A stretch of 64,000 nt of DNA, from NCBI GenBank assembly GCA_009908855.1, contig JAAAOM010000003.1, forward strand, positions 77,663 through 141,662, read 5' to 3'. Both the position numbers and the translations under genes were made by a program. This DNA comes from Bacteroidota bacterium (lineage in GTDB: Bacteria > Bacteroidota > Bacteroidia > Bacteroidales > JAAAOM01). The notes under the pieces were generated by a model, which had not been told where the DNA came from, searched no databases, and worked only from the letters and a program-made list of their open reading frames with translations. Positions 1,058 through 46,929 of this stretch are shown piece by piece. Each line of letters opens with the position of its first letter. The stretch's first letter is position 1.

Positions 1058-1124
1058 ATAGCGCTGTATTCTAAAGTTTTTGTTCCTTTGGTAAAATTGG
1101 TAAACTTATGAATTTCTGTAATGT

Positions 1125-2051: not shown

Positions 2052-2073
2052 GTCAGATCAATTTTTCGTTTTT

Positions 2074-3453: not shown

Positions 3454-3456
3454 AAT

Positions 3457-4830: not shown

Positions 4831-4870
4831 AATTAATTATATCTCCATCTCATATAAAATTCAACAATGC

Positions 4871-5905: not shown

Positions 5906-5915
5906 GTGTGCCTGG

Positions 5916-7208: not shown

Positions 7209-7228
7209 AATCCGTCTTTTTTTAGGGT

Positions 7229-8197
7229 TTATAGATCCTTTATTATTTCTTGTGTATGATAGGATATGATAATGTCTGCTCCTGCCCTTTTCATGGAAGT
7301 CAGTAGTTCCGACACCAGACGTTTTTCATCAATCCAACCTTTTTGCGCCGCTGCTTTAACCATCGAAAATTCACCACTTACATTATAGGCAGCAACAGGC
7401 ACATTAATATTTTGTTTTACACGGGTGATAATGTCCAGATAACTCAATGCCGGCTTTACCATCACAATATCGGCTCCTTCAGTAATGTCCATTTCAATTT
7501 CGCGCATGGCCTCACGGCTATTGGCGGGGTCCATCTGATAGGTAGCCCGATTTCCGAATTGTGGTGCGCTTTCGGCTGCCTCACGAAAGGGGCCGTAGAA
7601 AGCCGATGAATATTTGGCTGCATAAGACATAATGGGAATGCCATGATAACCCTCCCGGTCCAATGATTGACGAATATGCTTTACACGCCCATCCATCATA
7701 TCGCTGGGCGCCACCATATCAACCCCTGCCCGTGCCAGTGATAATGACTGCTTCGACAATGTATTGAGGGTGACATCATTATCAACATCACCATCTATTA
7801 TGGTTCCGCAGTGGCCATGCGTGGTATACTCGCAATTGCAAACATCAGCAATAAGGTATAGATTTGGGATTTCTTTTTTCAGGGCACGAATGGCCTGCTG
7901 AACAATCCCGTCTTCCTGACAGGCTATTTCACCCGTTTCGTCTTTTTCTTCCGGAATACCAAATAATAAAACTGCCTGAACACCCATTTTTTCCAATTCA
8001 CTGCATTTTTCAACCAGTAAATCGACCGATAACTGGTAGTTACCCGGCATAGATGAGATAGCCTTTTTTACATTTGATCCGCTACGCACAAATAGTGGCA
8101 TAACCAGATCGTCACCAGATAATCTGTTTTCTCTTACCAGGTTTCGAATGGTTTCTGTTTTACGCAATCGACGTAATCGGGTAACCGGATATGTCAT
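7229..8197 (-). CDS. hemB: porphobilinogen synthase (ALA dehydratase)
   Basis: 322-aa ORF with [17 protein letters not shown] at the N-terminus, the [13 protein letters not shown] active-site lysine region and a Cys-rich metal site ([12 protein letters not shown]). Confidence 0.93.
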
Positions 8198-8232
8198 TTA
8201 ACTAATATGTTTTAGTTAATATTCAACTTCGT

Positions 8233-9003
8233 TTATTTAATATAGTATTCACAAATGCTATCGGCAATCCCTTTGGCATCAGACATACGTGCTGTAACAA
8301 CCGGAATCACACCCTGTTGTTCAATGGCAGTTGTGGTTGTATGCCCGATGCTGGCTATCCGTAATTTATTGGTAACCGACTCATCATCAATCAGGTTTTT
8401 TAAATTATCAAATCCCGAAGGACTTGTAAATATAATAAGGTCGTATTGATCATTCATCACCTGATCTAAAATTGTTTGATCTACCGCTTCGGGTTTTACT
8501 GTGTTGTACACATATACAACTTCAATATCAGCCTTGTGTTTAAGGTTATCCTTTAAAACAGATCGTGAAAGGTTACCGGTTGGCCATAATACCCGGGGAT
8601 TGGCATTTCCGAATTCCTTTTCAAGAGCATTCGCAAAATCGTTACTGGTATTCCCGGAATTTATGAAATCGGCTTTTAAATTGTATGCTTCAAGTTGTTT
8701 GGCAGTATGCTTACCTATGGTGGCCAATTTAAGGCTACGCGGCAGCTGCACCTGCCCGAATTCCTCTTTCAACAGATGAAAAAAATACCGGATACCATTC
8801 GGACTGGTGAAAATAATCCATTGATAATGTGAAAGGGGAAATATTTTGTTTTTGACTGAATGATCAATCTTTCGTTGTTGAATTTCAATCATGGGCATTT
8901 CCAACACTCGCCCCCCCATCTCATTAATATAGCCGGCCAATTCATCCGTTCTTCCGGGTGGCCTGGTTGAAATAAATATTTTATTTTCCAGCACTTTGTT
9001 CAT
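8233..9003 (-). CDS. hemD: uroporphyrinogen-III synthase
   Basis: 256-aa ORF with HEM4-like two-lobe organisation (IFTSPNG.. repeated as IIFTSPSG). Its ATG overlaps the hemC stop as TAATG at 9001..9005. Confidence 0.8.
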   Translation of the reverse strand: MNKVLENKIFISTRPPGRTDELAGYINEMGGRVLEMPMIEIQQRKIDHSVKNKIFPLSHYQWIIFTSPNGIRYFFHLLKEEFGQVQLPRSLKLATIGKHTAKQLEAYNLKADFINSGNTSNDFANALEKEFGNANPRVLWPTGNLSRSVLKDNLKHKADIEVVYVYNTVKPEAVDQTILDQVMNDQYDLIIFTSPSGFDNLKNLIDDESVTNKLRIASIGHTTTTAIEQQGVIPVVTARMSDAKGIADSICEYYIK

Positions 9004-9929
9004 TATGTCCTTATTTCATCTAAAATTTCTGCTCCTCCACGCGCCAACAATGACTCGGCCAAGGCAATTGCCAGGTCATTGGCTTTGGTGCGTTCGCCGC
9101 TAAATGTATCCTGAATATATTGATGGCCTTCCAGTGAGGCCACAAAACCATGAATAGTAAATTGTTCGTTCTGTAATTCGGTGTAACAACCAACGGGCAC
9201 CTGGCACCCGCCCATTAATGTTCGCATAAAACTACGCTCGGCACAAGCAGCAATCCATGTATCTTCGTGATGGAGCGCATTTAGAATTTCTTTGGTTTCC
9301 GCATCACCGGCATTTATTTCGATGGCTATTATCCCCTGACTCACAGCAGGCATGAATATCGACGGTTCAAGGATTTCAGTAATATAATTATCCAGGCCAA
9401 GCCTTTTGATCCCGGCTGCAGCCATTATCATGGCGTCACAATGGCCCTCCTCCATTTTTCGCAGTCGTGTATTAACATTTCCCCGTATGTCAACTATGTT
9501 AAATCGCCTGTTAATATTCAGTAATCCTGCTTTTCGCCTCAGGCTGGAAGTGGCGATGGTATGCTCCGGTGTCAGTTCATTGAGTTTAATATGATTCCGA
9601 CTAATAAGCGCATCCCTGCAATCCGCCCGGTCGAGTACGGCACCAATTTCAAAACCCGGTTCCAGCTCGGTTTGTAAATCCTTTAAACTATGCACAACCA
9701 TATCCACTTCGCCATTGGTAAGTGCAACCTCCAGTTCTTTTGTAAAAAGGCCTTTGTCACCAATTTTTGACAGGGCAACATCGACAATTTTATCGCCTTT
9801 GGTTTTAATCACTTTGGTCTCTATGAGGGTATCGTGAAATGCGTTTTCAAGGTGTTTTTTTACTTCGTTCGCCTGGAACAATGCCAGTTGACTTCCACGA
9901 GTACCGATTCTGATGTTTTTTTTGCTCAT
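9003..9929 (-). CDS. hemC: hydroxymethylbilane synthase (porphobilinogen deaminase)
   Basis: The ORF track gives 9003..9977, but the conserved N-terminus starts at MSKKNIRIGTRGSQLALFQA (ATG at 9929). That start also avoids overlap with hemA, which ends at 9946. Confidence 0.9.
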   Translation of the reverse strand: MSKKNIRIGTRGSQLALFQANEVKKHLENAFHDTLIETKVIKTKGDKIVDVALSKIGDKGLFTKELEVALTNGEVDMVVHSLKDLQTELEPGFEIGAVLDRADCRDALISRNHIKLNELTPEHTIATSSLRRKAGLLNINRRFNIVDIRGNVNTRLRKMEEGHCDAMIMAAAGIKRLGLDNYITEILEPSIFMPAVSQGIIAIEINAGDAETKEILNALHHEDTWIAACAERSFMRTLMGGCQVPVGCYTELQNEQFTIHGFVASLEGHQYIQDTFSGERTKANDLAIALAESLLARGGAEILDEIRT

Positions 9930-9945
9930 GTTGTTATCCCTGTTT

Positions 9946-11202
9946 TCAGGATACCTTGTCGGATAAAAACAGATCATTTATCGCTTTCAGGGAAGTTGAT
10001 GAGCTGTCGGTATGGGCCACCTGTTTAAGATTGCGAATAAACGTTCGAATATATTTCCGGGTAAGATTACCGGTATATTGCTCTATATATGCAGCCATTT
10101 CAGGATCACAATGATTCTTATAATTCAATAATTCTTCATCACGGATTTTTTGCATTTGAGCGGTAATGGTTTGAATAACCGGTCGCAGATTGCGGCTTTC
10201 AAGCCAGGTCATGTATTCAGCAACCATTTCCATGATTATTTCTTCGGCTGTAAGAATGCTGCTTTTACGCATTTCGGCTGTACCATTGACAATTTCCTGC
10301 AAAGCATCAACATCAAACAAATGTTTATCAGGAATACAGCCAATGGCCGGGTCGATGTTATTGGGCACTGACAGATCAATCAGTACCTGTGCATTCTTCG
10401 GGCCACCTTTGGCCTGAAAATGATCAGTTGAAATGATATATTCTTTTGCACCTGTTGTTACAAAAACGATATCGCTTGAAGATAAGTGCCTTGGGAATTG
10501 GTTGTAATCCACCACAATTGCATCGAATTCAGTGGCCAGTTTCTCAGCTTTGGCAGCTGTACGATTGGTTATTTTTAAATGTTGAACCCCTCTTTTTTTA
10601 AGATAGCGCATGGTCAATTCGGCTATTTCACCCGCGCCTATTATAAATACTTCTTTATCTTGAAGGTTACCCACTTTATTTTCGCATAAATCTATAGCCA
10701 CATAACTGATAGATGTTGCTCCCTGTTGAATTTCTGTTTCGGAACGAACCCGTTTGCTGGTTTCAAACGATTTTTGAAACAATCGCATGAGAATAGCATC
10801 GGTTAAATTGGCGTTTGTGGCAAATAAATAGGCATCTTTTACCTGTTTCACTATCTGAACTTCGCCCAGTACCATGGAATCGACTCCTGAGGTAACCCTG
10901 AATAGGTGATCTACAGCTTTGTCATCAACATATACGTAGAAATGTTTATGATATGATTCCTGAATTTGTTTATACTTATGCAAAAAATCAAGTATATCAC
11001 GTCGTATATACTGATTGCAAATATGTTCACATGAAAAATAAATCTCTGTTCTGTTGCAAGTTGAAATTACTACTGCTTCTTTAATACCGGTATGCTTTTG
11101 CAATCCTTCGGTAAAGGGTATTATTTCATCAGATGTTAATGAAAATTGCTGTCGAATATTTTGAGAAGCTGTTTTGTGGCTTATGCCCAAGGCTCCAACC
11201 AT
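9946..11202 (-). CDS. hemA: glutamyl-tRNA reductase
   Basis: 418-aa ORF with the catalytic-Cys motif VISTCNRTEIY, the NADPH-binding IIGAGEIAEL motif and a C-terminal dimerisation helix. It is the first gene of the hem cluster. Confidence 0.92.
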   Translation of the reverse strand: MVGALGISHKTASQNIRQQFSLTSDEIIPFTEGLQKHTGIKEAVVISTCNRTEIYFSCEHICNQYIRRDILDFLHKYKQIQESYHKHFYVYVDDKAVDHLFRVTSGVDSMVLGEVQIVKQVKDAYLFATNANLTDAILMRLFQKSFETSKRVRSETEIQQGATSISYVAIDLCENKVGNLQDKEVFIIGAGEIAELTMRYLKKRGVQHLKITNRTAAKAEKLATEFDAIVVDYNQFPRHLSSSDIVFVTTGAKEYIISTDHFQAKGGPKNAQVLIDLSVPNNIDPAIGCIPDKHLFDVDALQEIVNGTAEMRKSSILTAEEIIMEMVAEYMTWLESRNLRPVIQTITAQMQKIRDEELLNYKNHCDPEMAAYIEQYTGNLTRKYIRTFIRNLKQVAHTDSSSTSLKAINDLFLSDKVS

Positions 11203-21789: not shown

Positions 21790-21849
21790 TGTTGTAGATT
21801 TTTATTAAGAAGTTGTTAGAAACAATAAAACTTTTTAGCTTTGCGGCCA

Positions 21850-21935
21850 TTAATAACGGGGTGCCTTAATACAACGGGCTGAGATCATACCCATAAAACC
21901 TGATGCGGATAATGCCGCCGAAGGGAGCGTATGGT
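21850..21935 (+). promoter_or_regulatory. TPP (THI-box) riboswitch
   Basis: The sequence GGGGTGCC...GGCTGAGATCATACCC...AACCTGATGCGGATAATGCCGCCGAAGGGA matches the conserved THI-element core (CUGAGA, ACCUGAU, GGAUAAUGCC, AGGGA). It lies about 60 nt upstream of the TonB-dependent receptor start. Confidence 0.85.
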
Positions 21936-21993
21936 AAACGTAATGGAAAGTTCCCCGCTTTTCGCTTTGTTTAACCAATAATATTTTTTCATT

Positions 21994-24279
21994 ATGAAAC
22001 GTTTTTACATTTTTTTGGCTTTGGTTATGAGCTGTTTAAACGGTATCTCACAACAAGTATCAGGTGTGGTACTTAACAAACAATCCGGAGAACCATTAAT
22101 CGGGGCCAATGTTTATTATTCTGAAACCGGAAATGGTACTGTTACCAATGCTGAAGGCTACTTTTCAATGAATGTTCCCCGCTCTGCAGAGCATATAACC
22201 ATCAGTCATGTCGGGTTTAAAACAAAGAAAATTGCCATAAGCGATACAGTTAAAGCATACCTGGCTCCGGCTGTGGATTTGGAGCAAGTAATTATACAGG
22301 CTGTCCGTGCCGGCGATCAGGACCCTGTGACGCAAAGTACGGTTGAGCGCAAAGAACTGGAAAATGTGTATAATGGTGAGCAACCGATATTTTTTCTTGA
22401 GGACCTGACTCCCTCAATCATATCCTACTCCGAATCCGGAACTAAATTAGCCAACTATGGAAGTATGCGTTTGAGAGGTATTGGTCAGGAAAGAATTAAC
22501 ATGACACTGAACGGGGTTCCATTAAATGATATGATTGATCATGGCGTGTTCTTTTCCAATTTCACGGATATCGGTAACAGCTTCGAATCGGTACAGGTGC
22601 AGCGGGGAGTCGGAACCAGCAGCAACGGTGTGGCTTCCTATGCCGGATCAATTAATTTCGAATCTGTTAATATTGAAGACCGTGAACAGGGCGGACAACT
22701 GGAACTGGGACTTGGTTCTTTTAACACATACCGGTTAAATAGCAGTCTTTCCTCTGGTATGATTGATGATAAATGGTCATTTTATGGCAGCTATAGTCGC
22801 ATTGCTTCTGATGGTTTCAAGGATAATACCGGTACAAATGCATATTCGTTTTTCTTTTCAGGTGGTTATTTTGGTGAAAAAGATATGTTTAAGATAAACG
22901 CTTTCGATGCACGCTCCAAAAACGGATTGGGTTACAATTCTGAACCGGAAAGTGTATTAAAAAAAGATATAACTGCCAATTCGCTAAATGAGAATGACCA
23001 AGACGACTTCGGTCAACGCCTGATACAATTACAGCATACCCATATTTTCAACGATTTGTTCTCGACCAATGCTTCACTTTATTATGGAGGGGCATCGGGG
23101 GATTTTTTGTATACGTATCAGCATCCTGATGATACAACCGCCCTGGCACAGATTAACTATCCGCTTATAAATGACCACTATGGCCTTATGGTTAACGGGT
23201 TCCTGAATTATGGTCAATGGGAAATCAGTGTTGGTACCCATGGGTATATATTTAAGCGGGTAAATGAAGAATCATTTACACCGGATTTTGCCAATCCCTA
23301 TTATTTCGAAACTTCCGACAAAAAAGAGGTCAGTTGGTTTGGAAAAGTTCAATGGACCAATAGTACCTGGCGCATTTATGCCGATGCGCAAATGAGACAA
23401 ATGAACCTTTCCATTCACCCCGATTATGATGCTCCCGGCATGGAAGGCGTTGAACCTGAAGGGGAAATTACGAGAAACCGGACATTTATTAATCCCAACA
23501 TTGGTGCAAGTTATTCTTTCTCTGATCATTTATCGGTGTATGCATCCCTGGGGAGAATGGGACGCGAACCAACACGGATCGATATATTAGGTGGTTTTAG
23601 TTTATCTGCAGCCAATTTCGAGTTTGCGCAATCAGATGCTTTTAAGCCTGAGTATGTAAACGATTTGGAAGCAGGCATTAAATGGAATTCACAAATGTTG
23701 GCAGTTAATACAAACTTTTTCTATATGGATTTTGAGAATGAAATAGCGCCAATTGGTGAGGTATTGGCATTTGGCCTGCAAAAACGCCGAAATATCCCTA
23801 ATAGTTATCGTACAGGTGTTGAAATGGAGTGGAATTATCTACCCGTCCGCTTTATCGGTTTCCAGGGAAATCTGACCTATATGCAAAGTGAGATTGAAAC
23901 ATTCACATCCGGCACTGGTGAAACATACAATAATAAAACTCCCATACTCAGTCCTGAAATTATAGGACGGGGAAGAATAAATATATTTCCGGCAGAGAAT
24001 CTTTCGGTTAGATTCTCCGGGAATTATGTAGGCCAATCATTTCTGGAGCTTACCAATGATCCTGAATTTACGCTACCTGCTTATTTTACAATGGATGCCG
24101 CCATTGCCTATGAATTGGGAAGTATATCAATACGATTGGAAGCTAAGAATTTAAGTGATCAACATTATTATACGAATGGTTCACCATTGGATCTTGATTT
24201 TGACGGTACAAATGATGAACCCGGATATATTGTAAATGCCGGCAGAAATTATTTTTTATCAACAACATTTAAATTCTAG
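21994..24279 (+). CDS. TonB-dependent outer-membrane receptor, probably thiamine/thiamine-precursor uptake
   Basis: 761-aa ORF with a signal peptide, a CarboxypepD_reg-like N-domain (VSGVVLNKQSGEPLIGANVYY), a plug (RGIGQERINMTLNGVPLND) and a C-terminal barrel ending in aromatic F. It is preceded by the TPP riboswitch, and there is no SusD partner. Confidence 0.88.
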   Translation: MKRFYIFLALVMSCLNGISQQVSGVVLNKQSGEPLIGANVYYSETGNGTVTNAEGYFSMNVPRSAEHITISHVGFKTKKIAISDTVKAYLAPAVDLEQVIIQAVRAGDQDPVTQSTVERKELENVYNGEQPIFFLEDLTPSIISYSESGTKLANYGSMRLRGIGQERINMTLNGVPLNDMIDHGVFFSNFTDIGNSFESVQVQRGVGTSSNGVASYAGSINFESVNIEDREQGGQLELGLGSFNTYRLNSSLSSGMIDDKWSFYGSYSRIASDGFKDNTGTNAYSFFFSGGYFGEKDMFKINAFDARSKNGLGYNSEPESVLKKDITANSLNENDQDDFGQRLIQLQHTHIFNDLFSTNASLYYGGASGDFLYTYQHPDDTTALAQINYPLINDHYGLMVNGFLNYGQWEISVGTHGYIFKRVNEESFTPDFANPYYFETSDKKEVSWFGKVQWTNSTWRIYADAQMRQMNLSIHPDYDAPGMEGVEPEGEITRNRTFINPNIGASYSFSDHLSVYASLGRMGREPTRIDILGGFSLSAANFEFAQSDAFKPEYVNDLEAGIKWNSQMLAVNTNFFYMDFENEIAPIGEVLAFGLQKRRNIPNSYRTGVEMEWNYLPVRFIGFQGNLTYMQSEIETFTSGTGETYNNKTPILSPEIIGRGRINIFPAENLSVRFSGNYVGQSFLELTNDPEFTLPAYFTMDAAIAYELGSISIRLEAKNLSDQHYYTNGSPLDLDFDGTNDEPGYIVNAGRNYFLSTTFKF

Positions 24280-35969: not shown

Positions 35970-37436
35970 TTATTCGGATTGAATATATTCATAAGCCCCA
36001 ATATCCGGTGCTTCATCAGTATTTCTGAAATTTCCCAATATATCCTTTTCCAGGCCCGCAACCTCATCCAGCAATGCCGGATTACCTTTGTCAATGGCAA
36101 AAGCAGCTGAATCAAGCGATAAATCCAGGCTATCTGACGATACCTGCCTAAATCCGGGTTCGTTATTCCAGTAAATATTTTTAAAGCGTTTGGTATCGGT
36201 TGTATCCATATCCTTGCCGGAAGCCTTAATCAGGCAATTCTCGAAATTATATTCATAAACATTTAAAAGCGTATCGGCCAATACCAATTCATCTTTGCTA
36301 TTGCCATATATTATGGAATTCCTGAAATCAGCTTTTAGTAAATCACCACCAAAGTGTATGTCAAAAATTTCACCGGTAAACGGATCGCGATAGTTGGCGT
36401 ATGTAAAATAATTGGATAACCAAATTCCGGTACGCAAATTTTTTGAAGCCCCTACCGTGGTCTTATAGTTGCCAAATGTGCAATGATGAAATTCATATTC
36501 GCCCCCTCTGAAAAGGGCTAACAACACTTCGGAGCAATTGCTTATTTCAACATTTATCCCGGTAATAGTTGCACCGAAGGCGTAAATACCGGAAAAACTC
36601 ATATTCTCAATTATCACATTTTCGAGCATCACCTCAACGGGTTCATTTTCGGTAAGTAACCCAACCTGCATACCGGTAATGGCATTTTTTATTTGCGCAT
36701 TTTTGATCATATTCCCGGTACTTTTCGGGAAAAATACAATGGTTCCCCACTGACTTGGAATATCCTGGTAATCTTCTTCTAATCTGTCGGCCTGAAATAT
36801 TACCGGATTTTCAACGGTGCCTTCTACCAGCAACTGTCCCTGAATAATAATGCTGGAGCGGAAATGAGAATATACCTTCACCCCTTCCTGTATGGTTAAT
36901 GTGGTATTGCTGTCCACCAGTAAGTTATTGTAAATCACATAAGGCTTGTCGGCGGTCCAGGTTTCATCCGTTCTAATGGTTTTGGCGTTGAATAGATGTA
37001 TATTCTGTCCCCAGGCTACAATTTGTACAAAATGTGTTTGATTGTTAACCTCAAAAGCAATGGAATCGTTAATGAATATGGGATTGTTCTCATCCGATCC
37101 GTCGATAGTAGCCTCTACAAAAATGAACAGGCTGTCCTTACTGTGCAAGGTAATGTTCTTTCGTGATGTGTTTTCCTGTCCGTTAATGTTTAACCGAAAA
37201 TACGACTGATTACCACCCATCAAACGTATTTCATTAAATTTAACCGATTTATTCTCCCGATTGTAAACCTTAAAGATTTTGGTGGTTGTGCCGAGGGTTG
37301 TAAAAACGGTGTCGAACATAACCGTATCAGTCGAAAAACCAATATTCACATTGGATTGACTGTCAGCAAAATCATCCTTTTGGCAGGCAATCACCGCAAG
37401 CAGACTAATACATACAGGAATAAACTTATATATCAA
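35970..37436 (-). CDS. lipoprotein with parallel beta-helix-like repeats
   Basis: 488-aa ORF with a lipobox (LLAVIAC). Repeated N-x-x-I-x-N style turns (LENVIIENMSFSG, INVEISNCSE, FRNSIIYGN, FENCLIKA) suggest a right-handed beta-helix. It lies 9 nt upstream of the EEP gene. Confidence 0.6.
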   Translation of the reverse strand: MIYKFIPVCISLLAVIACQKDDFADSQSNVNIGFSTDTVMFDTVFTTLGTTTKIFKVYNRENKSVKFNEIRLMGGNQSYFRLNINGQENTSRKNITLHSKDSLFIFVEATIDGSDENNPIFINDSIAFEVNNQTHFVQIVAWGQNIHLFNAKTIRTDETWTADKPYVIYNNLLVDSNTTLTIQEGVKVYSHFRSSIIIQGQLLVEGTVENPVIFQADRLEEDYQDIPSQWGTIVFFPKSTGNMIKNAQIKNAITGMQVGLLTENEPVEVMLENVIIENMSFSGIYAFGATITGINVEISNCSEVLLALFRGGEYEFHHCTFGNYKTTVGASKNLRTGIWLSNYFTYANYRDPFTGEIFDIHFGGDLLKADFRNSIIYGNSKDELVLADTLLNVYEYNFENCLIKASGKDMDTTDTKRFKNIYWNNEPGFRQVSSDSLDLSLDSAAFAIDKGNPALLDEVAGLEKDILGNFRNTDEAPDIGAYEYIQSE

Positions 37437-38120: not shown

Positions 38121-39470
38121 CTAATTTAATGATAACTGATTACCCAGGTAAAAATCAATTAATTTCAATTGAAATACATACTCAAATTTGGCCTGCAGAG
38201 AATCTGATTTTGCTTTTATTAAATTGTTTTTCGCCGTATTGTATTCAACAGCAGTAATCATACCCACATCATATTTTTGCTGCGCATAGGAAAAGGCTTC
38301 TTCGTTGAATTTCACAGCTTCCTGTGCCGCGTAATATCTGTCCAACGCTGCCTGACCATCGGCATATACCTGCTGAATATCCTTATAAAGTTGTAATTTG
38401 GTTTTCTCAAGGCTAAGCTCAGCTTGCTTACTATACATTCTTGCCCGGTTGACGGAAGCACGATTTTCAAAACGATTAAAAATGGGAATTTGTAATCCTA
38501 CCGACACATTGCCATCCTGGTTGTCTTCAATCTGATCGAAATAGGGATAATCCTCCGTTACTCCGGTATTTTCGTTCGGCAATGTACGTAAACTCGAATA
38601 ACCGGTTGAGATTCTAAAACTCGCATATAACGAAGGACGAAATCCTGACTTTTGAATTTCCACGTTTTTGTCGGCTGATTTAACGCGCCATTCGGCACTC
38701 TTCACCTGGGGCATAATGCCCAATGAGGTTTGATACAACTCGCTTACCGGCTGTAACAGTCGATTGTGCTCCTGAACAGCTATTTCAGGTATAACAATTT
38801 CAAAGTTATCAGTATCCTCAAGATCGAGTAGTTGAACAAGGTCAAGATAAGCAATATTCAATTCATTTTGGGCATTGGTAACATTATATTTCTCATTTGC
38901 GGCCTGTGCCTGAATCTCATATAAATCGCCTTTGGCAACATTACCAACCTCCACCAATGCTTTTGTTCGTTCCAGTTGCATTTGAATTAGGCTGTCCTGA
39001 CTTTGTGCCACCTGCAGCAATTCCTTATTAAAAAGGATTTGCAGGTAAGCCATAGCTATTTGAATGGAAATATCATTTTTAGCTTTTTCCAGCTCGGCCT
39101 CCGTCATTTTCAACCTGTATTCCCGATAGGCCAGGTTATGATATTTTCGCAATCCTTCAAATAAACTCACCTGTGACTGTACATAGAAATTATTACTGGT
39201 ACTTGGGTCAGTAACAATTTCATTCAAAAATGGGTCCAGTGAACGCCCAAAATTGTAATTATAACCGGCACCGGCATTTAAGTCGGGCAAAAGACTGTAT
39301 TTAGCCACTTCCACATCGGTCTGGCTAATGTTACTTTCAAGTTGCTGTTGCTTAATATCAAGGTTGTTTTCGTAAGCATATTGTATGCAACGTTCCAATG
39401 ACCATGGCTGGGCAGTAGCCGCAAAAACCATCATAAATAGACAAATAAGCAGGATACTAAGTTTTTTCAT
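38121..39470 (-). CDS. tolC: TolC-family outer-membrane efflux protein
   Basis: 449-aa ORF with a signal peptide, and two repeats of the OEP coiled-coil/barrel pattern. The N-terminus (SLERCIQYAYENNLDIKQQQLE) is typical. Confidence 0.85.
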   Translation of the reverse strand: MKKLSILLICLFMMVFAATAQPWSLERCIQYAYENNLDIKQQQLESNISQTDVEVAKYSLLPDLNAGAGYNYNFGRSLDPFLNEIVTDPSTSNNFYVQSQVSLFEGLRKYHNLAYREYRLKMTEAELEKAKNDISIQIAMAYLQILFNKELLQVAQSQDSLIQMQLERTKALVEVGNVAKGDLYEIQAQAANEKYNVTNAQNELNIAYLDLVQLLDLEDTDNFEIVIPEIAVQEHNRLLQPVSELYQTSLGIMPQVKSAEWRVKSADKNVEIQKSGFRPSLYASFRISTGYSSLRTLPNENTGVTEDYPYFDQIEDNQDGNVSVGLQIPIFNRFENRASVNRARMYSKQAELSLEKTKLQLYKDIQQVYADGQAALDRYYAAQEAVKFNEEAFSYAQQKYDVGMITAVEYNTAKNNLIKAKSDSLQAKFEYVFQLKLIDFYLGNQLSLN

Positions 39471-39613
39471 TTAATGAATTGTTTGACTTATGAATGACTG
39501 AATTATTAATTAGAATGATGTTAACCATATAAAAGTAAACTTCCTTACAAATAACGAACTAATTAAAGAATTATTTATAATTATTTAAGAAAAAATAACG
39601 TTTCAGGTTAATG

Positions 39614-39826
39614 TTATACAATATCGATTGCTAAATCCTGAAAATGAATTACATCATCTTTCCTGATTTTGGCCCGTTTACGTGTTTCAACTTCATGATT
39701 AACCGATACATGACCTTGTTCTATCAATAATTTTGACATGCCTCCTGAATGAGCCATCTGTAATACTTTTAATAGCTTATATAATTCAATCGAATCGCTT
39801 TTTAATTCAAAGGTGAGATGTTGCAT
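39614..39826 (-). CDS. S4-domain RNA-binding protein (YaaA-like)
   Basis: 70-aa ORF. LYKLLKV...GGMSKLLIEQGHVSVNHEVETRKRAKIRKDDVI matches the small S4-domain protein pattern. Confidence 0.7.
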   Translation of the reverse strand: MQHLTFELKSDSIELYKLLKVLQMAHSGGMSKLLIEQGHVSVNHEVETRKRAKIRKDDVIHFQDLAIDIV

Positions 39827-39904
39827 GAAGTAATGTTCGGTAATTGAATACCAATTAAAGATAATTTTTTGAGAATTGAAAAGAAATACTGATAAATACG
39901 CTGC

Positions 39905-40195
39905 TTATTTGCTAAGGGTAAGTGTTTCAACAAGATCGTTTACCTCCTCTTCAACGTTGGTAATCAGAATTTTTGCTCCTTTTTCGTTGGCTGATTTAAA
40001 CAGATCAAACAATGTATTAAAACCTTTGGAGCTGAAGTTCCTGATTCCTTTGAAATTAATGATAAACATCCTGTCTTCTCCCAGTTTGGGTGTTATTTCG
40101 CGGGTAAGTGAATTGGCCAGGTCTTCGGTAAATCCGGAATCATTCCCGATGTTTACCATATATTCTTTTTCTTTATAATGATTGATATCGATCAT
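39905..40195 (-). CDS. STAS-domain protein (anti-sigma-factor-antagonist-like)
   Basis: 96-aa ORF. FIINFKGIRNFSSKGFNTLFDLF...GAKILITNV resembles the SpoIIAA/STAS core, including a Ser in the usual phospho-site region. The +-strand ORF 39876..40178 is judged spurious. Confidence 0.65.
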   Translation of the reverse strand: MIDINHYKEKEYMVNIGNDSGFTEDLANSLTREITPKLGEDRMFIINFKGIRNFSSKGFNTLFDLFKSANEKGAKILITNVEEEVNDLVETLTLSK

Positions 40196-40243
40196 ACAAC
40201 CTTTTTTATATTAAACATGAGCAGGAATCAATTGTTCTACAAC

Positions 40244-42244
40244 TTACTGAATACTTTTTACCACAAAGCTGATTAATTCATCAGCCGGATTTGGTTTTTC
40301 GAATGCTTTGGTGATATAAGATGGTTTATTTAAGAGTTTCCGATCGATCATTTCATTAATAGTATCAACATATTTCAAGGATGTTTTACCCACCAACAAC
40401 GAATCAAGTTTGCCATTTTCCTGATAATAATTAAGTATATCACGAAAACCACGCAGATATAAAAAATCTTTTGTAAATCCCCCTCCCCTATACACACGTG
40501 CCGTAAAATAAAAAGCCTTTTCGGCAGAAATATCAGCCAGGTCGCGGATGTAATAAAAAGTATCGCGGAAGCTTTTGCCTCTTAAAAGGCTTTGGATACA
40601 TAAAACCCTTAAGGCTAATTCTTTTAATCGTTCAATACTGAGATTACCTGAAAGCATTTCACTTAAAATAGCCAGCCCTTCCTGCGTTAATGTATTAACA
40701 GGCAATCCCAGCCGTAATATTTGCAAGGGTTGGTTCCGGGCATTGATGGTAGTTACCATGTGAACACCTATTTCATGTTCGCTCAATGCGCGCAATGCCC
40801 TTTCGGAATAATAAGTACCGCGTCGGAGCCTTATGGTTTTTTTGTTGTTAAGCACCAATACTTTGGCTACAATGTTTTTGGCAATTTCCACTTTACAGTC
40901 AAAGCCATAGTCGGCAACTTCCTTACGGAAATAGTTCCTGGCTGCTTCCACCGATATATTTTCTTCTACATCGCCAACATCATGATTACCGGCATGCATT
41001 ATGAATTGGGCATTACTCACATCATTCTCTGATGGCTCACCAAAATAACGCAATGAATTATATACGAATTTATCGGTACCGATGGTGGCAATCAGGTCTA
41101 CCTTATCAGCATAGGCATCAATCACATCCTTATACATATTTTGGATGTTGATGTCACTAATTTGTTCCACCTTTATATTGTACAGTTTACGTTTGAATTC
41201 GAAGGGGTTAATAACAAGCTGACGATACCTAAACTCGGGATTGACATTGAATTTCGACTGAAAGAACCGTTTTTTTTCCTGTTCCAGGTTAACAGGGTTG
41301 ATAAAATTCAATATTTCAAAATTGCGTACCAATTGAAATAATTCCCGGTCTACTTTCATGGTTTCTTTATCGGGTGCCTGAGAAAGCAGGTATGGCGCTT
41401 TAACGTTGCGGTCTTTAATAATATACCGATTGAAATATTTGGAAAGATTAATTATGGACTGACGCATACCAACCGAAATTGCATCTACCACCACGGGATA
41501 GAATACGCCCTGCTCTTCATCGCCATATACCTTCTTAACTTCAGTGGGTAATATCAGGGTGTTTCGGAAATTTTGTTGCGCAAATTCGGCCAGGTACCCG
41601 CGGCCATAGAAAATATCGTTTATGGCTACGGTAGTTTCAATATCAGGAATTTCGATTTTTCGCAGTTCAGCAAACCACTTTTTTATGGCTTTGTTGTATC
41701 GCCTGGTATCAATCAGATCAGTACCAATATTAATGACCGGTAATATTCGATTGTATCGCTTATAGTTAAATGAATGTATATCAAATACCAAACAGCTGTT
41801 AAAAGTTTCTTCAAGGTGCTTGATTAAAGCATATACTACTTTATAAAAATTATGATGTTTGGACAGCGATGTTTCTTTCTGTTTTTTTGTTAATGGCTTC
41901 TTCCACACCTGTTTACCCCATGCTTCGCCATAAATTGCATCGGCAGGATTTCGATTCAGGTCATATTCATATCGCGTATCATTCCCCACCAACCGAATGG
42001 GAAAACCACTTATAAACTGATCTGTTTTCGGGTCTTCTTCATATAACCGTTCGTTTTCATTTAATAAACAATTACCATGCAGCTCCTCCCGGAAATTATG
42101 TCCGGCATGTATGGCCGCGCATACATAAGGTACATAATCATCAATAAATATACTGAATGATTCGTCTTCGGTAGTTGCCTGAAAAGTTTTATGCTGATTG
42201 ATCCGTTTCAGGATATCATCGATAGATAGCTTAAGCATTTTCAA
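40244..42244 (-). CDS. two-domain hydrolase: N-formylglutamate-amidohydrolase-like N-domain fused to a DUF1704 / QEGLA-motif (MATCAP-family) metallocarboxypeptidase-like C-domain
   Basis: 666-aa ORF. The N-half carries FGase-like motifs (AAIHAGHNF, TRYEYDLNRNP, LVFDIHSF). The C-half carries HEIGVH (HExxxH) followed about 30 aa later by LTQEGLA. The start overlaps the upstream ATP-grasp gene by 14 nt. Confidence 0.75.
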   Translation of the reverse strand: MKMLKLSIDDILKRINQHKTFQATTEDESFSIFIDDYVPYVCAAIHAGHNFREELHGNCLLNENERLYEEDPKTDQFISGFPIRLVGNDTRYEYDLNRNPADAIYGEAWGKQVWKKPLTKKQKETSLSKHHNFYKVVYALIKHLEETFNSCLVFDIHSFNYKRYNRILPVINIGTDLIDTRRYNKAIKKWFAELRKIEIPDIETTVAINDIFYGRGYLAEFAQQNFRNTLILPTEVKKVYGDEEQGVFYPVVVDAISVGMRQSIINLSKYFNRYIIKDRNVKAPYLLSQAPDKETMKVDRELFQLVRNFEILNFINPVNLEQEKKRFFQSKFNVNPEFRYRQLVINPFEFKRKLYNIKVEQISDINIQNMYKDVIDAYADKVDLIATIGTDKFVYNSLRYFGEPSENDVSNAQFIMHAGNHDVGDVEENISVEAARNYFRKEVADYGFDCKVEIAKNIVAKVLVLNNKKTIRLRRGTYYSERALRALSEHEIGVHMVTTINARNQPLQILRLGLPVNTLTQEGLAILSEMLSGNLSIERLKELALRVLCIQSLLRGKSFRDTFYYIRDLADISAEKAFYFTARVYRGGGFTKDFLYLRGFRDILNYYQENGKLDSLLVGKTSLKYVDTINEMIDRKLLNKPSYITKAFEKPNPADELISFVVKSIQ

Positions 42245-43259
42245 TTATATTACGGAAACTACGCTTACGGTCAATGGCCGATTCTTTATGTTGCACAACA
42301 TTCTCGGCAAAATCAATAATCTGTTTTTGCAGTTTTACGCGGTTGAATTTATTGATGCGGGTAATTCCTCCCGGACTGCAAACATTTATTTCAATGAGTT
42401 TACCATTGATTATATCCAGCCCTACAAAATACAACCCGTCTGATACTAACTTGGAACCGATATTCCTGCATAGTTTTCTTTCGGCTTTGGTTAAATTATG
42501 TTTCACGGCATTGCCGCCTGCATGAATATTTGAACGTACATCATCATCGGCCGGCACCCGGCGGTATGCACCAATGGGTTCACCGTTGAGCATCAATACG
42601 CGTACATCACCTTTTTCAGCTCCTTCAACATAGTCCTGTAAAATCACATAATTACTGTCCTTTTTGCCGGATATATAAAAATCGAGAATGGAATTGATAT
42701 TTTGGGTGGCATTTTTCTCCAACACTATCACACCGCTTCCGCCAAAACCATCTAAAGGCTTTAATATCATCCATTTGGAGTCAGATTCCTTAATGATCTT
42801 TTTCAAATAATCTTTATTCTTGGATACATGCGTAGCAGGAATCATTTCATGTTCCGGATCATTAAAACATGCCGGATACAGTTTATTGCTTGCTTTACGC
42901 AGGCCATCAATATCGTTTATGATAAAAGTATCGTCCTTGACAGAATCCAGGAAATTTAACATAATCGGATCAAGCGGTGGATTGGTGCGAACAAATATCA
43001 CATCAAAACCCGATAACGGGAACATCTGCTCCTTAAACCTCGCTTTTTTATAAAATGTGGTGATGGTAGGAGATATTTTTTCATCTTTCAGTAGCATTTT
43101 TACAAATGCATAAGCATTGTTTCCCCGTATGGTTAAATTATTGGGATATACCACACCAACCTTATGCCCACGCAAAGCGGCCTCGTGCACCATACGTAAA
43201 CTTGAATCGGTCTCAGGTTCAATTACTTCCCACGGATATAAAATAAAGCAAATATTCAT
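42231..43259 (-). CDS. GshB-like ATP-grasp ligase (glutathione-synthetase family)
   Basis: The ORF is open to 43355, but the conserved N-terminus begins at MNICFILYPW (ATG at 43259). It is colinear with E. coli GshB motifs (DSS, DVIFVRTNPPLD, NKLYPACF, ILKPLDGFGGSGV, GDVRVLMLNGEP, RSNIHAGG, YFVGLDIINGKLIEINVCSPGG). Confidence 0.85.
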   Translation of the reverse strand: MNICFILYPWEVIEPETDSSLRMVHEAALRGHKVGVVYPNNLTIRGNNAYAFVKMLLKDEKISPTITTFYKKARFKEQMFPLSGFDVIFVRTNPPLDPIMLNFLDSVKDDTFIINDIDGLRKASNKLYPACFNDPEHEMIPATHVSKNKDYLKKIIKESDSKWMILKPLDGFGGSGVIVLEKNATQNINSILDFYISGKKDSNYVILQDYVEGAEKGDVRVLMLNGEPIGAYRRVPADDDVRSNIHAGGNAVKHNLTKAERKLCRNIGSKLVSDGLYFVGLDIINGKLIEINVCSPGGITRINKFNRVKLQKQIIDFAENVVQHKESAIDRKRSFRNIIENA

Positions 43260-43327
43260 TACGCCAGTTGTTTTTTTGCGGTTGCTAATGTCGTTTAATA
43301 AAATTGAATTTACATTTAATTTGCCAT

Positions 43328-43370
43328 TCAATTTGCCATTCAATTTGCCATTCAATTTGAATAAAATTTA
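43328..43370. repeat. 12-nt tandem repeat, about 3.6 copies (AATTTGCCATTC)
   Basis: Direct reading gives aatttgccattc three times, then aatttga. It lies 69 nt upstream of the probable ATP-grasp start. If translated it would read (NGKL)3. Confidence 0.9.
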
Positions 43371-43615
43371 GCAGATTAAAAAAAGATTGCTTCAGCGATC
43401 ATATATACATTCACCGAAGCCCATGCATCGAAAAGAAAAAACAACTTTGAAATCAATGCCGTTTAGCGGAGGTAATTTATTTTGTAATTATAAAAAATAG
43501 GAGAATACATTTATAACCAATATTATTTTCAGTTTCATTTACGCAATGGGTCGTGTTTTATGTGTGGGGCCACGTATTTACCTGAATTAGGTGAGATTTG
43601 CTGATGAAATAGTAT

Positions 43616-43666
43616 ATGAGGCTGGCTATAAAATTTTTAATCTGATACTTTATTAGCCAGCCTCAT
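43616..43666. repeat. 13-bp perfect inverted repeat with a 25-nt spacer
   Basis: ATGAGGCTGGCTA (43616..43628) is the exact reverse complement of TAGCCAGCCTCAT (43654..43666). It lies about 100 nt downstream of the MtaC-like gene, and no U-tract follows on either strand. Confidence 0.8.
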
Positions 43667-43768
43667 GAAAAAGGTGCTTTATACCGGTTTGAAAATTGCA
43701 TTTTTCTTACATTCCGACCCGGGTATACGAATGCCGTTAATACGTAATGTCCAAACAACCATATAACC

Positions 43769-44440
43769 TTAGGCTGCCAGTAATTTATTCAGGCTGGATA
43801 CGGCTCCTTGCGGATCAGGAGAATATGCATCAGCACTAATTTTCTCACAAAATTCCTGATTAACAGGTGCTCCGCCAATTATAATTTTCGTATCAGGAGA
43901 AGCCGCCTTGATTTCCCCGACAATTTTCTCCATACTTACCATTGTAGTAGTAAGCAAAGCCGATAAACCGACAAAGCAACCGGGATATTGTTTAATGGTT
44001 TCAATAAAGGATTCAGCTGATACATCAACGCCTAAATCAACTACATTCCATCCGTTTCCTTCCACCATCATGGAAACCAGATTTTTGCCTATATCATGCA
44101 AATCACCCGAGACAGTGCCTATAACAAATGTTCCTTTTTGTTGAACCGACCCGTCCTGAAAATAAGGTTTAATATGCAACATGGCTTTGCTCATGGCCTT
44201 GGCAGACATAAGCATCTGCGGAACAAAAATTTTATTTTGCGTAAATTTATTACCGACTTTTTCCATTGCAGCAATCATGCCATCGGAAAGTATTTCCGAA
44301 GGTTTAATTCCGCTATCCAGGGCTGATTTCACCAGTTCATCTGCTCCATCCTGTCCTTTCATATCAGGTGGAAAGGGACTGTTTTTATCAATTTTACCAA
44401 ACTCAATACAATGCGCGATTTGTTCAATTATTTTTTCCAT
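43769..44440 (-). CDS. mtaC: corrinoid (B12)-binding protein, MtaC/MtbC-like
   Basis: 223-aa ORF with an N-terminal helical cap domain plus a Rossmann B12-binding domain. It carries the DxHxxG signature (GDLHDIGKN), SxL (LSALLTTT) and GG (IIIGGAPV). Confidence 0.85.
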   Translation of the reverse strand: MEKIIEQIAHCIEFGKIDKNSPFPPDMKGQDGADELVKSALDSGIKPSEILSDGMIAAMEKVGNKFTQNKIFVPQMLMSAKAMSKAMLHIKPYFQDGSVQQKGTFVIGTVSGDLHDIGKNLVSMMVEGNGWNVVDLGVDVSAESFIETIKQYPGCFVGLSALLTTTMVSMEKIVGEIKAASPDTKIIIGGAPVNQEFCEKISADAYSPDPQGAVSSLNKLLAA

Positions 44441-44499
44441 GACAATTTATTTATTCAATTATTTAATTTACTAATAATTTATGATTTTATTGCTTTAAT

Positions 44500-45885
44500 T
44501 TAGGTGATACCATACTCATTAAGCAAAATTTTATTTTGATCTAAAGTTGGTACTACCAGGTCAATAAACTTCTCCTCATTAAACGGGATTGCTTCTAATT
44601 CTGAACGTAACATGTCAATCCAGGTAAGTTCCATGTCATTTAATGTTAGTTTATCCTGTTTATAGGCCTTGTCTATAATTTCAACTGATTTCAGACATCC
44701 TAATACGCAGGCTTCGATATAATTATTGCCCTTTACGATTTCCTTTGAAATTTCAATTACGCTTTCAGGTGCAAGTACCAATGCCTGCGGATCGTAAGAG
44801 ATATCAGAATTCACCATTAGTTCCTGTAATTGTGTGCAGGCATCGTGGCCTTTATGTACAGCCTGGTTCATTAAACGACAATCGTACTCAAGCTGTTCAA
44901 GATAGACGGTAGGTGCAAAACCAGCCAACAGTTTAATGTTCTGAACCGATTCGTTGCTCCATAAATCGCAACAAGCGGCTGCTATGTTACCTACAGGACT
45001 TAAATGTGCACATGCGGCAGTTTTACCTTCCATCGAAATGGGTATCCCGGCAATAGCCTTTAAGAAGGGGCCTTCATAACCACAGTCTTTATCCGGCCCG
45101 GTAGCACCGTGCTCAACAGCCACCAGCGTTCTTACCACCGTTGCTACGCGAGCAACAGCCGCAAAAATTTTTGGTATATATTTTTTTTCGGCAAGAACCA
45201 TTGCTGTATTTCCAAATCCGCATGCCGTATCACCACCCATCAATACACCTGTTTTACCGGCAACGTCAGCAATTTTATCCCATAAAAAATGCATGTCACG
45301 AACCCCCAGAACTGCCTGACTGAATATGAATTGTGTCATATTACACATCATCAGTGCGTCATCAGAAATTTCCTTGCCACCGGTGCTTTCGATACTCAGC
45401 AGATTACCACCTGCTTTCGCCCCTTCTTCAAACAACTGCATCATCGGATCAAGATATGCACCGGTACGTTGCCTCGGAGGGCGGTCAAATTCGCGTAAAT
45501 CATTTGGTGTAAGGCGAATCTCAGTAGGCAACTGATGCTTTTGATAGTATTCTTCACAAATTTCATTCATGGTTTTTACAACTCCCACACCTATATCCGG
45601 GTATTTGGTCATTTCAATAACCGTTTCCAGTTCTAAAACCACTCCTTGGCTATATAAGTCCTTAGCCCTTTCAAGTGCACCGGTTGTAATTTGACGATAA
45701 TGTTCAATAACCTGTTCTTTAGAATCCGGGGAGACTTCAATAGAAGGAAGGGTGAAATTCAGTTCCGGGTAAACCCGGCCTCCGCCAATAACCAATCCGC
45801 GTTTGGTTGTTACAGGATGTGGTGTATTACCAAAAATCAGGTCATTGGCATTTTTTATAGCTAAATCACGATATTTCATATTCAA
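44500..45885 (-). CDS. mtaB: MtaB-family methanol:corrinoid methyltransferase homologue
   Basis: 461-aa ORF. Long colinear similarity to Methanosarcina MtaB as I recall it: LLSIESTGGKE, GGDTACGFGNTAM, GPDKDCGYEG, KAIAGIPISMEGKTAACAH, CCDLWSNESV. The Glu/Cys/Cys positions matching the MtaB zinc ligands appear conserved. Confidence 0.8.
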   Translation of the reverse strand: MNMKYRDLAIKNANDLIFGNTPHPVTTKRGLVIGGGRVYPELNFTLPSIEVSPDSKEQVIEHYRQITTGALERAKDLYSQGVVLELETVIEMTKYPDIGVGVVKTMNEICEEYYQKHQLPTEIRLTPNDLREFDRPPRQRTGAYLDPMMQLFEEGAKAGGNLLSIESTGGKEISDDALMMCNMTQFIFSQAVLGVRDMHFLWDKIADVAGKTGVLMGGDTACGFGNTAMVLAEKKYIPKIFAAVARVATVVRTLVAVEHGATGPDKDCGYEGPFLKAIAGIPISMEGKTAACAHLSPVGNIAAACCDLWSNESVQNIKLLAGFAPTVYLEQLEYDCRLMNQAVHKGHDACTQLQELMVNSDISYDPQALVLAPESVIEISKEIVKGNNYIEACVLGCLKSVEIIDKAYKQDKLTLNDMELTWIDMLRSELEAIPFNEEKFIDLVVPTLDQNKILLNEYGIT

Positions 45886-45894
45886 ATGTATTAA

Positions 45895-46929
45895 TTATGT
45901 TTCACGTACTAAAAGTTCAGATAAAATGACTAATTGTTTACTGGTTAGTTCAGGGTCGTTATGGATGATTTGTACAATTCTGCGGGCCATCTCGGCATAG
46001 TTGCAGTCTAATACTGTTAAAGGCGGATTGCAATACCTTGTAATCTCTGTATTGCCGTATGAGACAATGGCAACATCGTCAGGTACTTTAATACGCCAGC
46101 TTTGTAATCTTCCTAAAATCCGGATTGACCGTGTATCCTGTAATGATAATATGCCGGTTATATGATTGTCCTGAATATATGCTTTGTTTATACGGTTTAG
46201 GTTGGTATTAATAAATAATTTGCGTTGTGGCTGCCTGGAAGCAATAATCTGCCATGCCGTATTTTCAATTAATTCCATAATCATGTGTTTTCCTTGCCAG
46301 GGTTCATCAACCGAGAGTAATATATTTCCGGAGTTAGCACTAAAAAGATAATTGATGGCGCGCTTTATACCCAGGTCATAACTTTGTACGGCATATTCAA
46401 AATACGAACCGGCCATGGTATAATCGGCCAGCACAAGTTTAGACTTTTCAAGTGAAAGGTGTCGGTAAAACTCGGCGGTGAGCATTTCATTATAGTTAGG
46501 AACCACAATGATAGCCTCAAAGCCCTGATTAATAAGATTCCCGACCAGACGCATTTCTTCAGCCGCATTATTATAATGCAGAAAATATTGCAACTTACGC
46601 TCATACTGCTCGGCCAGGTTGTTTATTTCAGAAATTAATTGTTCAATATTAGAAGAATAAAAGGGTATGACCATACCCCAAATTTTAATTACTTTTTTTA
46701 CGGACAAAACGTAAGTACCTTTGCCTGCCCGTGATACCACAAGATTTTCATCGATAAGAGATTTAATTACTTTTTTAGCCGTTTCACGCGATACCTTATG
46801 CCGGTCCATTATACGATTTATGGAATCAATGCGTGAACCGGCTTCATATTCCTGAGCAATAATCTTATTCCGGTAGTAATCGGTAAGACGTTTATAGATA
46901 GGTATGTAATCCTGAAATTCCAATGGCAT
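45895..46929 (-). CDS. AraR-like transcriptional regulator (GntR wHTH + LacI-type sugar-binding domain)
   Basis: 344-aa ORF. The N-terminal GntR HTH reads SINRIMDRHKVSRETAKKVIKSLIDENLVVSRAGKGTYV. The C-terminal periplasmic-binding-protein-like domain reads VPDDVAIVSYGNTEI...PPLTVLD. It ends 9 nt upstream of the mtaB-like start. Confidence 0.8.
   Translation of the reverse strand: MPLEFQDYIPIYKRLTDYYRNKIIAQEYEAGSRIDSINRIMDRHKVSRETAKKVIKSLIDENLVVSRAGKGTYVLSVKKVIKIWGMVIPFYSSNIEQLISEINNLAEQYERKLQYFLHYNNAAEEMRLVGNLINQGFEAIIVVPNYNEMLTAEFYRHLSLEKSKLVLADYTMAGSYFEYAVQSYDLGIKRAINYLFSANSGNILLSVDEPWQGKHMIMELIENTAWQIIASRQPQRKLFINTNLNRINKAYIQDNHITGILSLQDTRSIRILGRLQSWRIKVPDDVAIVSYGNTEITRYCNPPLTVLDCNYAEMARRIVQIIHNDPELTSKQLVILSELLVRET

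Follow-up and report, generated by a model that had tools for sequence, protein, structure and literature searches.

The window analysed here, a stretch of 64,000 nucleotides (nt) of contig JAAAOM010000003.1 (assembly GCA_009908855.1, Bacteroidota bacterium), contains a two-gene cassette on its minus strand. The first gene encodes an ATP-grasp ligase of the GshB family; the second overlaps the end of the first and encodes a hydrolase in which an N-formylglutamate amidohydrolase-like (FGase) domain is fused to a MATCAP/DUF1704 (QEGLA) domain. The pair is kept together across distant bacterial lineages. We tentatively favour, at a little under even confidence, its reading as a self-contained make-and-trim pair for a short glutamate-type peptide, with a small peptide as the preferred substrate. 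The features of the cassette are as follows (aa, amino acids).

42231 to 43259, minus strand: GshB-family ATP-grasp ligase, PRK12458/NF009110, 342 aa from its ATG (Pfam, NCBIfam, alignment to 1gsa).
42231 to 42238, minus strand: overlap of ligase stop and hydrolase start, ATGCTTAA, 8 nt counted from the hydrolase ATG (reading of the sequence).
40244 to 42238, minus strand: fused FGase-MATCAP (QEGLA) hydrolase, 664 aa from its ATG or 666 aa from TTG 42244.
41567 to 42130, minus strand: FGase domain, N-formylglutamate amidohydrolase-like with an M14-like fold (PF05013, Foldseek 2q7s).
40256 to 41272, minus strand: MATCAP/DUF1704 gluzincin carboxypeptidase domain (PF08014, Foldseek 7z5g, human MATCAP profile).
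40760 to 40777, minus strand: HEIGVH zinc/catalytic motif of the HExxxH type (translation; aligns with HEIGTH of human MATCAP).
40670 to 40684, minus strand: QEGLA motif with the putative third metal ligand Glu (translation; aligns with EEGLA of MATCAP).

The ligase possesses the Pfam domains GSH-S_N (E 4e-22, 78.9 bits, cutoff 21.3) and GSH-S_ATP (E 4e-56, 189.8 bits, cutoff 23), in this order. Its best NCBIfam model is NF009110/PRK12458 with 435.8 bits (cutoff 408), and residues 6-320 align with Escherichia coli GshB (1gsa) at E 1e-36; RimK structures are matched at about 1e-11. These results bear out the original prediction of a 342-aa ATP-grasp protein like glutathione synthetase. The ligase stays below the RimK cutoffs, both of TIGR00768 (81.7 vs 143.4 bits) and of the RimK equivalog NF007764 (56 vs 331), and similarities to LysX, MptN and CofF among its ATP-grasp matches are weak. 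NF009110 is also the top-scoring model for hydrolase-linked ligases from distant taxa. Those of Sinorhizobium meliloti (501), Photobacterium damselae (485) and a metagenome-assembled genome (MAG) of the Sulfurimonadaceae (452) pass its cutoff; that of Empedobacter (320) falls below.

Residue conservation was determined by aligning 77 hydrolase-linked ligases to E. coli GshB, with a threshold of at least 95%. In E. coli numbering, the conserved positions comprise K125, K160, G164, G166, G167, Q198, D208, R210, R225, P227, R233, N235, G239, G240, D273, E281 and N283, and furthermore, in the N-domain, D19, E27, R31, R86, N114, R120 and N123. We take K125, K160, R210, R225, R233, D273, E281 and N283 to be the GshB residues for ATP, Mg and the loops; R210, R225 and R233 together with two loops have catalytic roles in E. 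coli GshB. Clade-specific changes relative to E. coli GshB include E124N, S118G, T288G, Y100N, E294N and I11W. Judged from these alignments, the ligase is an intact GshB-family enzyme carrying a few systematic changes. It shares domain architecture and conserved positions with E. coli GshB, but it belongs to the separate subfamily NF009110 and is coupled to a hydrolase rather than stand-alone.

The complete GshB architecture and catalytic residues argue for an alternative that we regard as quite improbable, namely that the ligase is a genuine synthetase isozyme for glutathione (GSH) or an analogue, and that the fused hydrolase degrades GSH or GS-conjugates or processes a precursor. Two further observations favour it. 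The equivalog model NF003573, 'glutathione synthase', is passed (286.8 bits, cutoff 272), and among the 120 closest ligase homologues this is the name given in every source that states a function, with one source giving 'hypothetical'. On the other side, the equivalog TIGR01380 misses its cutoff (235.2 vs 299.05), and it is NF009110 that scores best, as it does for the hydrolase-linked ligases of S. meliloti, P. damselae and the Sulfurimonadaceae MAG. S. meliloti is informative, as its strains 1021 and 2011 both hold a three-gene version of the module on pSymB (99.5% identity). A mutant of the chromosomal gshB (SMc00419) of strain 2011 contains no GSH by high-performance liquid chromatography (PMC7063052). 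Because GSH is missing from this mutant in spite of the pSymB module, the pSymB ligase paralogue does not supply GSH under the conditions of that study. Bacteroidota have the pair, and so do the Sulfurimonadaceae MAG and one labelled Chlamydiales. Bacteroidota, Campylobacterota and Chlamydiales are groups generally not known to make GSH. No member of the gshA-type family occurs among the 25 scanned of the 28 open reading frames (ORFs) of at least 300 aa in the window, as first noted from the sequence, which is a statement on 64 kb and not on the whole genome. The earlier suggestion that the pair does not serve glutathione synthesis thus gains indirect support from the separate ligase subfamily and from the S. 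meliloti 2011 mutant; most probably, housekeeping synthesis of glutathione is not the task of the cassette.

The hydrolase possesses an FGase domain in residues 39-226 (PF05013, E 5e-15, 56.6 bits, cutoff 28.9) and a MATCAP domain in residues 325-663 (PF08014, E 1.6e-103, 346.9 bits, cutoff 27). The TIGR02421 QEGLA model scores 389.9 bits (cutoff 338.65), and a profile comparison with human MATCAP gives E 1e-13. The three motifs that had suggested an FGase-like N-terminal half (IHAGHNF, TRYEYDLNRNP and DIHSF) are all present in the translation. The C-terminal half, proposed to belong to the DUF1704/QEGLA family, has its HEIGVH and QEGLA motifs 31 residues apart. Besides these motifs, GGFTKDxLYL of the hydrolase is aligned to GCFSKDQVYL of MATCAP in sequence and profile searches. 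The MATCAP structure chain 7z6s_C reads HQIGTH where the hydrolase has HEIGVH, presumably as a catalytic E-to-Q mutant.

An AlphaFold2 model of the hydrolase, calculated with 18 homologues, has a mean pLDDT of 86.2 and displays two domains connected by a disordered linker (276-284). Foldseek searches against the PDB assign the C-terminal half to human MATCAP (7z5g_B, E 6.7e-9, probability 1.00, target-normalised TM score 0.64; also 7z6s), at a sequence identity of about 18%. Profile models, predicted structure and Foldseek are consistent with one another in the assignment of the domains. The N-terminal half matches the FGase 2q7s_A (E 1.7e-8, TM 0.77) and also 2odf, with weaker matches to the M14 carboxypeptidases A and T. 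HutG enzymes (PF05013; 2q7s, 2odf) share this fold and the conserved His, Asp, Glu and Arg positions; they differ from the FGase domain described here, which is fused to MATCAP, coupled to a ligase and without adjoining histidine-utilisation genes. No hut genes adjoin the pair in the window, in annotated relatives or among the recurrent neighbours examined.

In the 18 homologues, which are 47-57% identical to the hydrolase, the MATCAP residues H488, E489, H493, Q519, E520, G521 and A523 are invariant, as are the FGase residues H44, E68, D87, R89, D93, N95, R96, D153 and H155, with E233 nearly so. Since the active-site residues are invariant, both domains look catalytically competent. Neither the ligase nor the hydrolase begins with a hydrophobic signal-like segment, as judged by eye, and for this reason both are taken to be cytoplasmic.

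The two genes overlap, the extent depending on the start codon of the hydrolase. The 14-nt overlap with a 666-aa protein, as originally described, holds for a start at TTG 42244; from the ATG two codons later (42238) the overlap is the 8-nt ATGCTTAA and the protein has 664 aa, which is also the length of the database gene call. Among related loci, a stop/start overlap of 1-20 nt is found in 70 of the 77 that could be measured. An ATG was picked as the start in all 77 by a procedure that favoured ATG, and 23 of them have the 8-nt overlap. The overlap makes ligase and hydrolase a translationally coupled unit.

Homologues of the fused hydrolase number more than 742, and each of the top 120 has both domains and a length near 664 aa. 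Bacterial MATCAP/DUF1704 proteins amount to thousands: clusters matching the full fused query comprise 2823 representatives at E <=0.001, with FGase-only matches counted too. A scan of one genome per species detected a relative of the hydrolase in at least 571 species, and the gene context was analysed for the best 80 loci. According to their record titles, these belong to Bacteroidota and to Gammaproteobacteria such as Photobacterium, Marinobacterium and Neptuniibacter, and include MAGs labelled Sulfurimonadaceae, Nitrospirota, Verrucomicrobiales and Chlamydiales. A GshB-like ligase is located directly upstream of the hydrolase and on the same strand in 78 of the 80 loci; of the two exceptions, one lies at a contig edge, and in L045 the hydrolase is genuinely an orphan. 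The reverse check from ligase homologues finds the hydrolase downstream in three of four long contigs, once with FGase and MATCAP as separate genes; in the fourth, from Leptobacterium, the ligase is an orphan. The association of ligase and hydrolase that had been proposed for the single locus is strongly conserved.

The genes that follow the hydrolase on the same minus strand encode, according to Pfam and in agreement with the first description, a STAS protein (1.4e-8), an S4 protein (S4_2, 9.6e-22) and an OEP/TolC protein (4e-58). Their proposed role as target, regulator or export route did not survive the comparison: not one of the 80 loci has STAS (phmmer, E 1e-3), S4 or TolC beside the pair, and the downstream genes of the six closest relatives are all different. 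They were rejected as components of the system, as they are not conserved with the pair, and are local neighbours only. A STAS partner-switching module as part of the system is likewise not borne out. When ORFs of 90 aa or more from the flanks (up to 8 kb) of the 80 loci were clustered all against all, no third conserved gene emerged; a LysR regulator and a protein of about 120 aa recur near the pair solely inside the Photobacterium group. A co-encoded small precursor or carrier peptide was also considered and rejected, as clustering of all ORFs of 25-130 aa located up to 1.5 kb from the pair in these loci returned just lineage-specific shadow ORFs. Because no other gene or small ORF is conserved near the pair, the substrate must be something that most bacteria already have.

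The same three domains also occur in other arrangements. On rhizobial replicons of Sinorhizobium (pSymB), Aminobacter, Shinella and Mesorhizobium, each domain has a gene of its own. The three genes lie side by side, in a different order, and encode a stand-alone FGase (with 31% identity to the FGase domain of the window), a QEGLA protein of about 620 aa and a PRK12458 ligase (501 bits). The longest protein among the best 150 representatives, a metagenomic protein of 843 aa, consists of FGase, a middle region and MATCAP; a triple fusion of ligase and hydrolase domains is absent from these 150. Stand-alone QEGLA proteins, such as those of Pseudoalteromonas (about 426 aa), possess the same MATCAP/QEGLA domain and pass the same NCBIfam model, but lack the FGase domain and have no ligase nearby. 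As these 426-aa proteins have no ligase nearby, the ligase-linked branch constitutes a subfamily. The name of the stand-alone protein probably goes back to a study of the fhp promoter of Pseudomonas aeruginosa that dealt with PA3697, a putative member of the family; PA3697 is reported to regulate fhp.

Two observations concern individual variants. In alphaproteobacterial QEGLA proteins (L081 6197-6940, L084 4209-4950, L085 4197-4940), the N-terminus is extended by a further conserved domain, some 245 aa long and without a Pfam match, which may be a degenerate FGase. Its comparison with FGase by hhalign is co-linear but weak (4.8% probability), and the position of the His in DIHS appears to be lost. 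In a 437-aa protein (P0216), an FGase domain 42% identical to that of the window is fused to a GNAT acetyltransferase and not to MATCAP.

The joint inheritance of the three activities, fused or split, would suit a sequential pathway, in which the hydrolase releases or deprotects an N-acylated or peptide-linked precursor and the ligase couples it, or the reverse, to give some metabolite by a protecting-group logic similar to that of LysX/LysK-LysW or of N-acetyl-glutamate pathways. Such a pathway is also in line with the higher conservation of the ligase, which is 62-75% identical to its closest database homologues as compared to 48-58% for the hydrolase, and with the weak similarities of the ligase to LysX, MptN and CofF. 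However, neither a carrier protein nor a modifying enzyme or transporter is conserved adjoining the pair, and two hydrolytic steps with one ligation lead to no obvious known product. We consider a sequential pathway very improbable.

The favoured reading of the cassette, in which a short glutamate-type peptide is made and trimmed, builds on the chemistry of its relatives. GshB-type ATP-grasp enzymes acyl-phosphorylate the carboxylate of a peptide and add an amine. FGase enzymes cut the amide of an acyl-Glu, and MATCAP takes off a C-terminal residue behind acidic residues. Characterised relatives of all three domains use glutamate-containing substrates, i.e. gamma-Glu-Cys, N-formyl-Glu and tails ending in ...EEY or ...EE. 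By analogy, the ligase would spend ATP on converting a free carboxylate group of a short acidic peptide, of the glutamyl type, into an acyl-phosphate, and would then add an amino acid. The hydrolase, translated in step with the ligase, would act as a bifunctional metallohydrolase: its MATCAP domain, a gluzincin carboxypeptidase, would remove the C-terminal residue, and its FGase domain, with the M14-like fold, would cleave the acyl-glutamate amide bond. Between them, building and trimming would control how long or how abundant a small glutamate-containing peptide is, comparable to the poly-alpha-glutamate of RimK/RimB. A small peptide is preferred as substrate because the ligase keeps the N-domain residues of GshB, because characterised FGase-family enzymes use small N-acyl amino acid substrates, and because the cassette crosses phyla without any target gene. 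The retention of almost all conserved GshB residues, those of the N-domain included, is as compatible with a small peptide as with a protein tail, if not more so.

Expression data are available from P. damselae. At 1% NaCl, as compared to 3%, the adjacent genes RS17020 ('GshB') and RS17025 ('QEGLA motif protein') are up 38.4-fold and 27.5-fold, respectively, and rimK is up 52-fold (PMC10308900). The cassette is likely linked to glutamate or osmotic homeostasis.

The co-induction with rimK is a point in favour of another explanation, in which ligase and hydrolase are writer and eraser on the C-terminal tail of a widely conserved protein, e.g. a ribosomal protein, with MATCAP and FGase both trimming. 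This model is viable because the sole characterised MATCAP enzymes act on proteins and because RimK/RimB, acting on S6, provides a bacterial precedent. The motif and fold of MATCAP are conserved here, the FGase domain has the fold of the M14 carboxypeptidases, and the tight 1:1 coupling of the two genes would suit a complex. Against a protein tail stand the lack of a conserved neighbouring target gene or small ORF, the much closer relation of the ligase to GshB (1e-36) than to RimK (1e-11) with the GshB N-domain residues kept, and the small N-acyl amino acids used by characterised FGase enzymes. The C-termini of the STAS and S4 proteins encoded nearby, ...TLSK and ...IDIV, are not acidic tails, and neither protein is conserved with the pair. 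We rate the protein-tail model as somewhat unlikely. Its more specific form we hold to be unlikely, namely that the GshB-derived ligase tags the acidic C-terminus of a conserved cellular protein and the M14-like/MATCAP fusion removes the tag in response to osmotic or ionic conditions, which would make the system a prokaryotic counterpart of MATCAP and possibly a relative of its source.

Both the small-peptide and the protein-tail reading have parallels in known systems. RimK/RimB is a precedent for a ligase and protease pair on poly-Glu: a cytoplasmic ATP-grasp ligase is co-encoded with a peptidase for C-terminal Glu or free poly-Glu (PMC11957051), and rimK is co-induced with our pair at low salt in P. 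damselae. It differs in its parts, as the ligase described here is of the GshB type and the peptidase is a fusion of zinc hydrolases, whereas RimB is a retropepsin-like aspartic protease. The tubulin cycle (TTL/TTLL against MATCAP/TMCP and the M14 CCP enzymes) likewise combines an ATP-grasp ligase with a MATCAP-family gluzincin and an M14-like hydrolase, and both HExxxH and the Glu of EGLA are common to the hydrolase and human MATCAP. Eukaryotic CCP deglutamylases are members of M14. In contrast to the tubulin cycle, the hydrolase of the bacterial system shares only about 18% identity with MATCAP, its ligase is not TTL-like, and bacteria have no tubulin tail. The make-and-trim logic would resemble that of RimK/RimB, TTL/MATCAP and TTLL/CCP, with different parts: a GshB-type ligase and a fusion of two metallohydrolases.

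Several points weigh against a make-and-trim pair for a small glutamyl peptide. The MATCAP enzymes characterised so far are protein C-terminal carboxypeptidases and not small-peptide enzymes. The 'glutathione synthase' model NF003573 narrowly accepts the ligase, as given above, so that a true GSH synthetase activity is conceivable. Co-expression of a ligase with hydrolases that might reverse its reaction would seem wasteful without regulation of one of them. The link to salt comes from one transcriptome of one species. Orphans of both kinds exist: the fused hydrolase of a Cytophagales MAG (L045, 7989-9992) has no ligase within its 8-kb flanks, and the 64%-identical ligase of Leptobacterium flavescens (L089, 4001-5038) has no adjacent hydrolase. 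Finally, the literature searched contains nothing functional or biochemical on the PRK12458 ligase subfamily or on bacterial MATCAP-family proteins, and no paper on the association of ligase and hydrolase was found in it.

The DNA 5' of the ligase possesses a short tandem repeat.

43313 to 43359, no strand assigned: 12-nt tandem repeat, 3.9 copies, 97% matches (Tandem Repeats Finder, score 87).

This repeat lies directly 5' of the ligase ATG and may be a regulatory site or the binding site of a regulator. An alternative, TTG-initiated reading of the ligase extends to 374 aa, and its extra part is only the translated tandem repeat (NGKL repeats). Further upstream, a perfect long inverted repeat (43610-43665) is located right behind a corrinoid-protein gene. 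It is probably a terminator parting the corrinoid operon from the promoter region of the ligase; a simple terminator scan does not include it among its sites. In a promoter and terminator scan of positions 39400-43800 the number of sites is not above that of shuffled sequence, and Rfam gives no match within the ligase-hydrolase locus.

The remaining features of the window lie outside the cassette. Positions 43769-46929 hold a group of genes for an MtaB-like methyltransferase (Pfam 8e-158; NCBIfam MtaB 405 bits vs cutoff 720), a corrinoid protein and a regulator of the GntR/periplasmic-binding type, a combination that suggests corrinoid-dependent methyl transfer in this Bacteroidales-like genome. 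Genes for haem biosynthesis form a compact cluster at 17-11202, which encodes ferrochelatase, coproporphyrinogen oxidase, an amine-oxidase-type oxidase, a radical-SAM enzyme, URO-D, a class-III aminotransferase (HemL-like), ALAD, porphobilinogen deaminase and glutamyl-tRNA reductase. A thiamine pyrophosphate (TPP) riboswitch (21847-21943, 60 bits) directly 5' of a TonB-dependent receptor gene (21994-24279) suggests thiamine-regulated uptake across the outer membrane. The 488-aa ORF at 35970-37436 has no Pfam match at E 1e-5.

For the MATCAP/DUF1704 family, the results tie a large bacterial branch to an FGase domain and to one particular type of GshB-like ligase, and thereby describe a testable system of three activities. 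PRK12458-type ligases are probably not evidence of glutathione synthesis, e.g. in reconstructions from Bacteroidota genomes. Should the substrate be an oligo-glutamyl peptide, the cassette would point to a mechanism for the buffering of glutamate or osmolytes. Should it be a protein tail, the cassette would constitute a further reversible C-terminal tagging system beside RimK/RimB on S6, and would be relevant to the question of how the tubulin detyrosinase arose.

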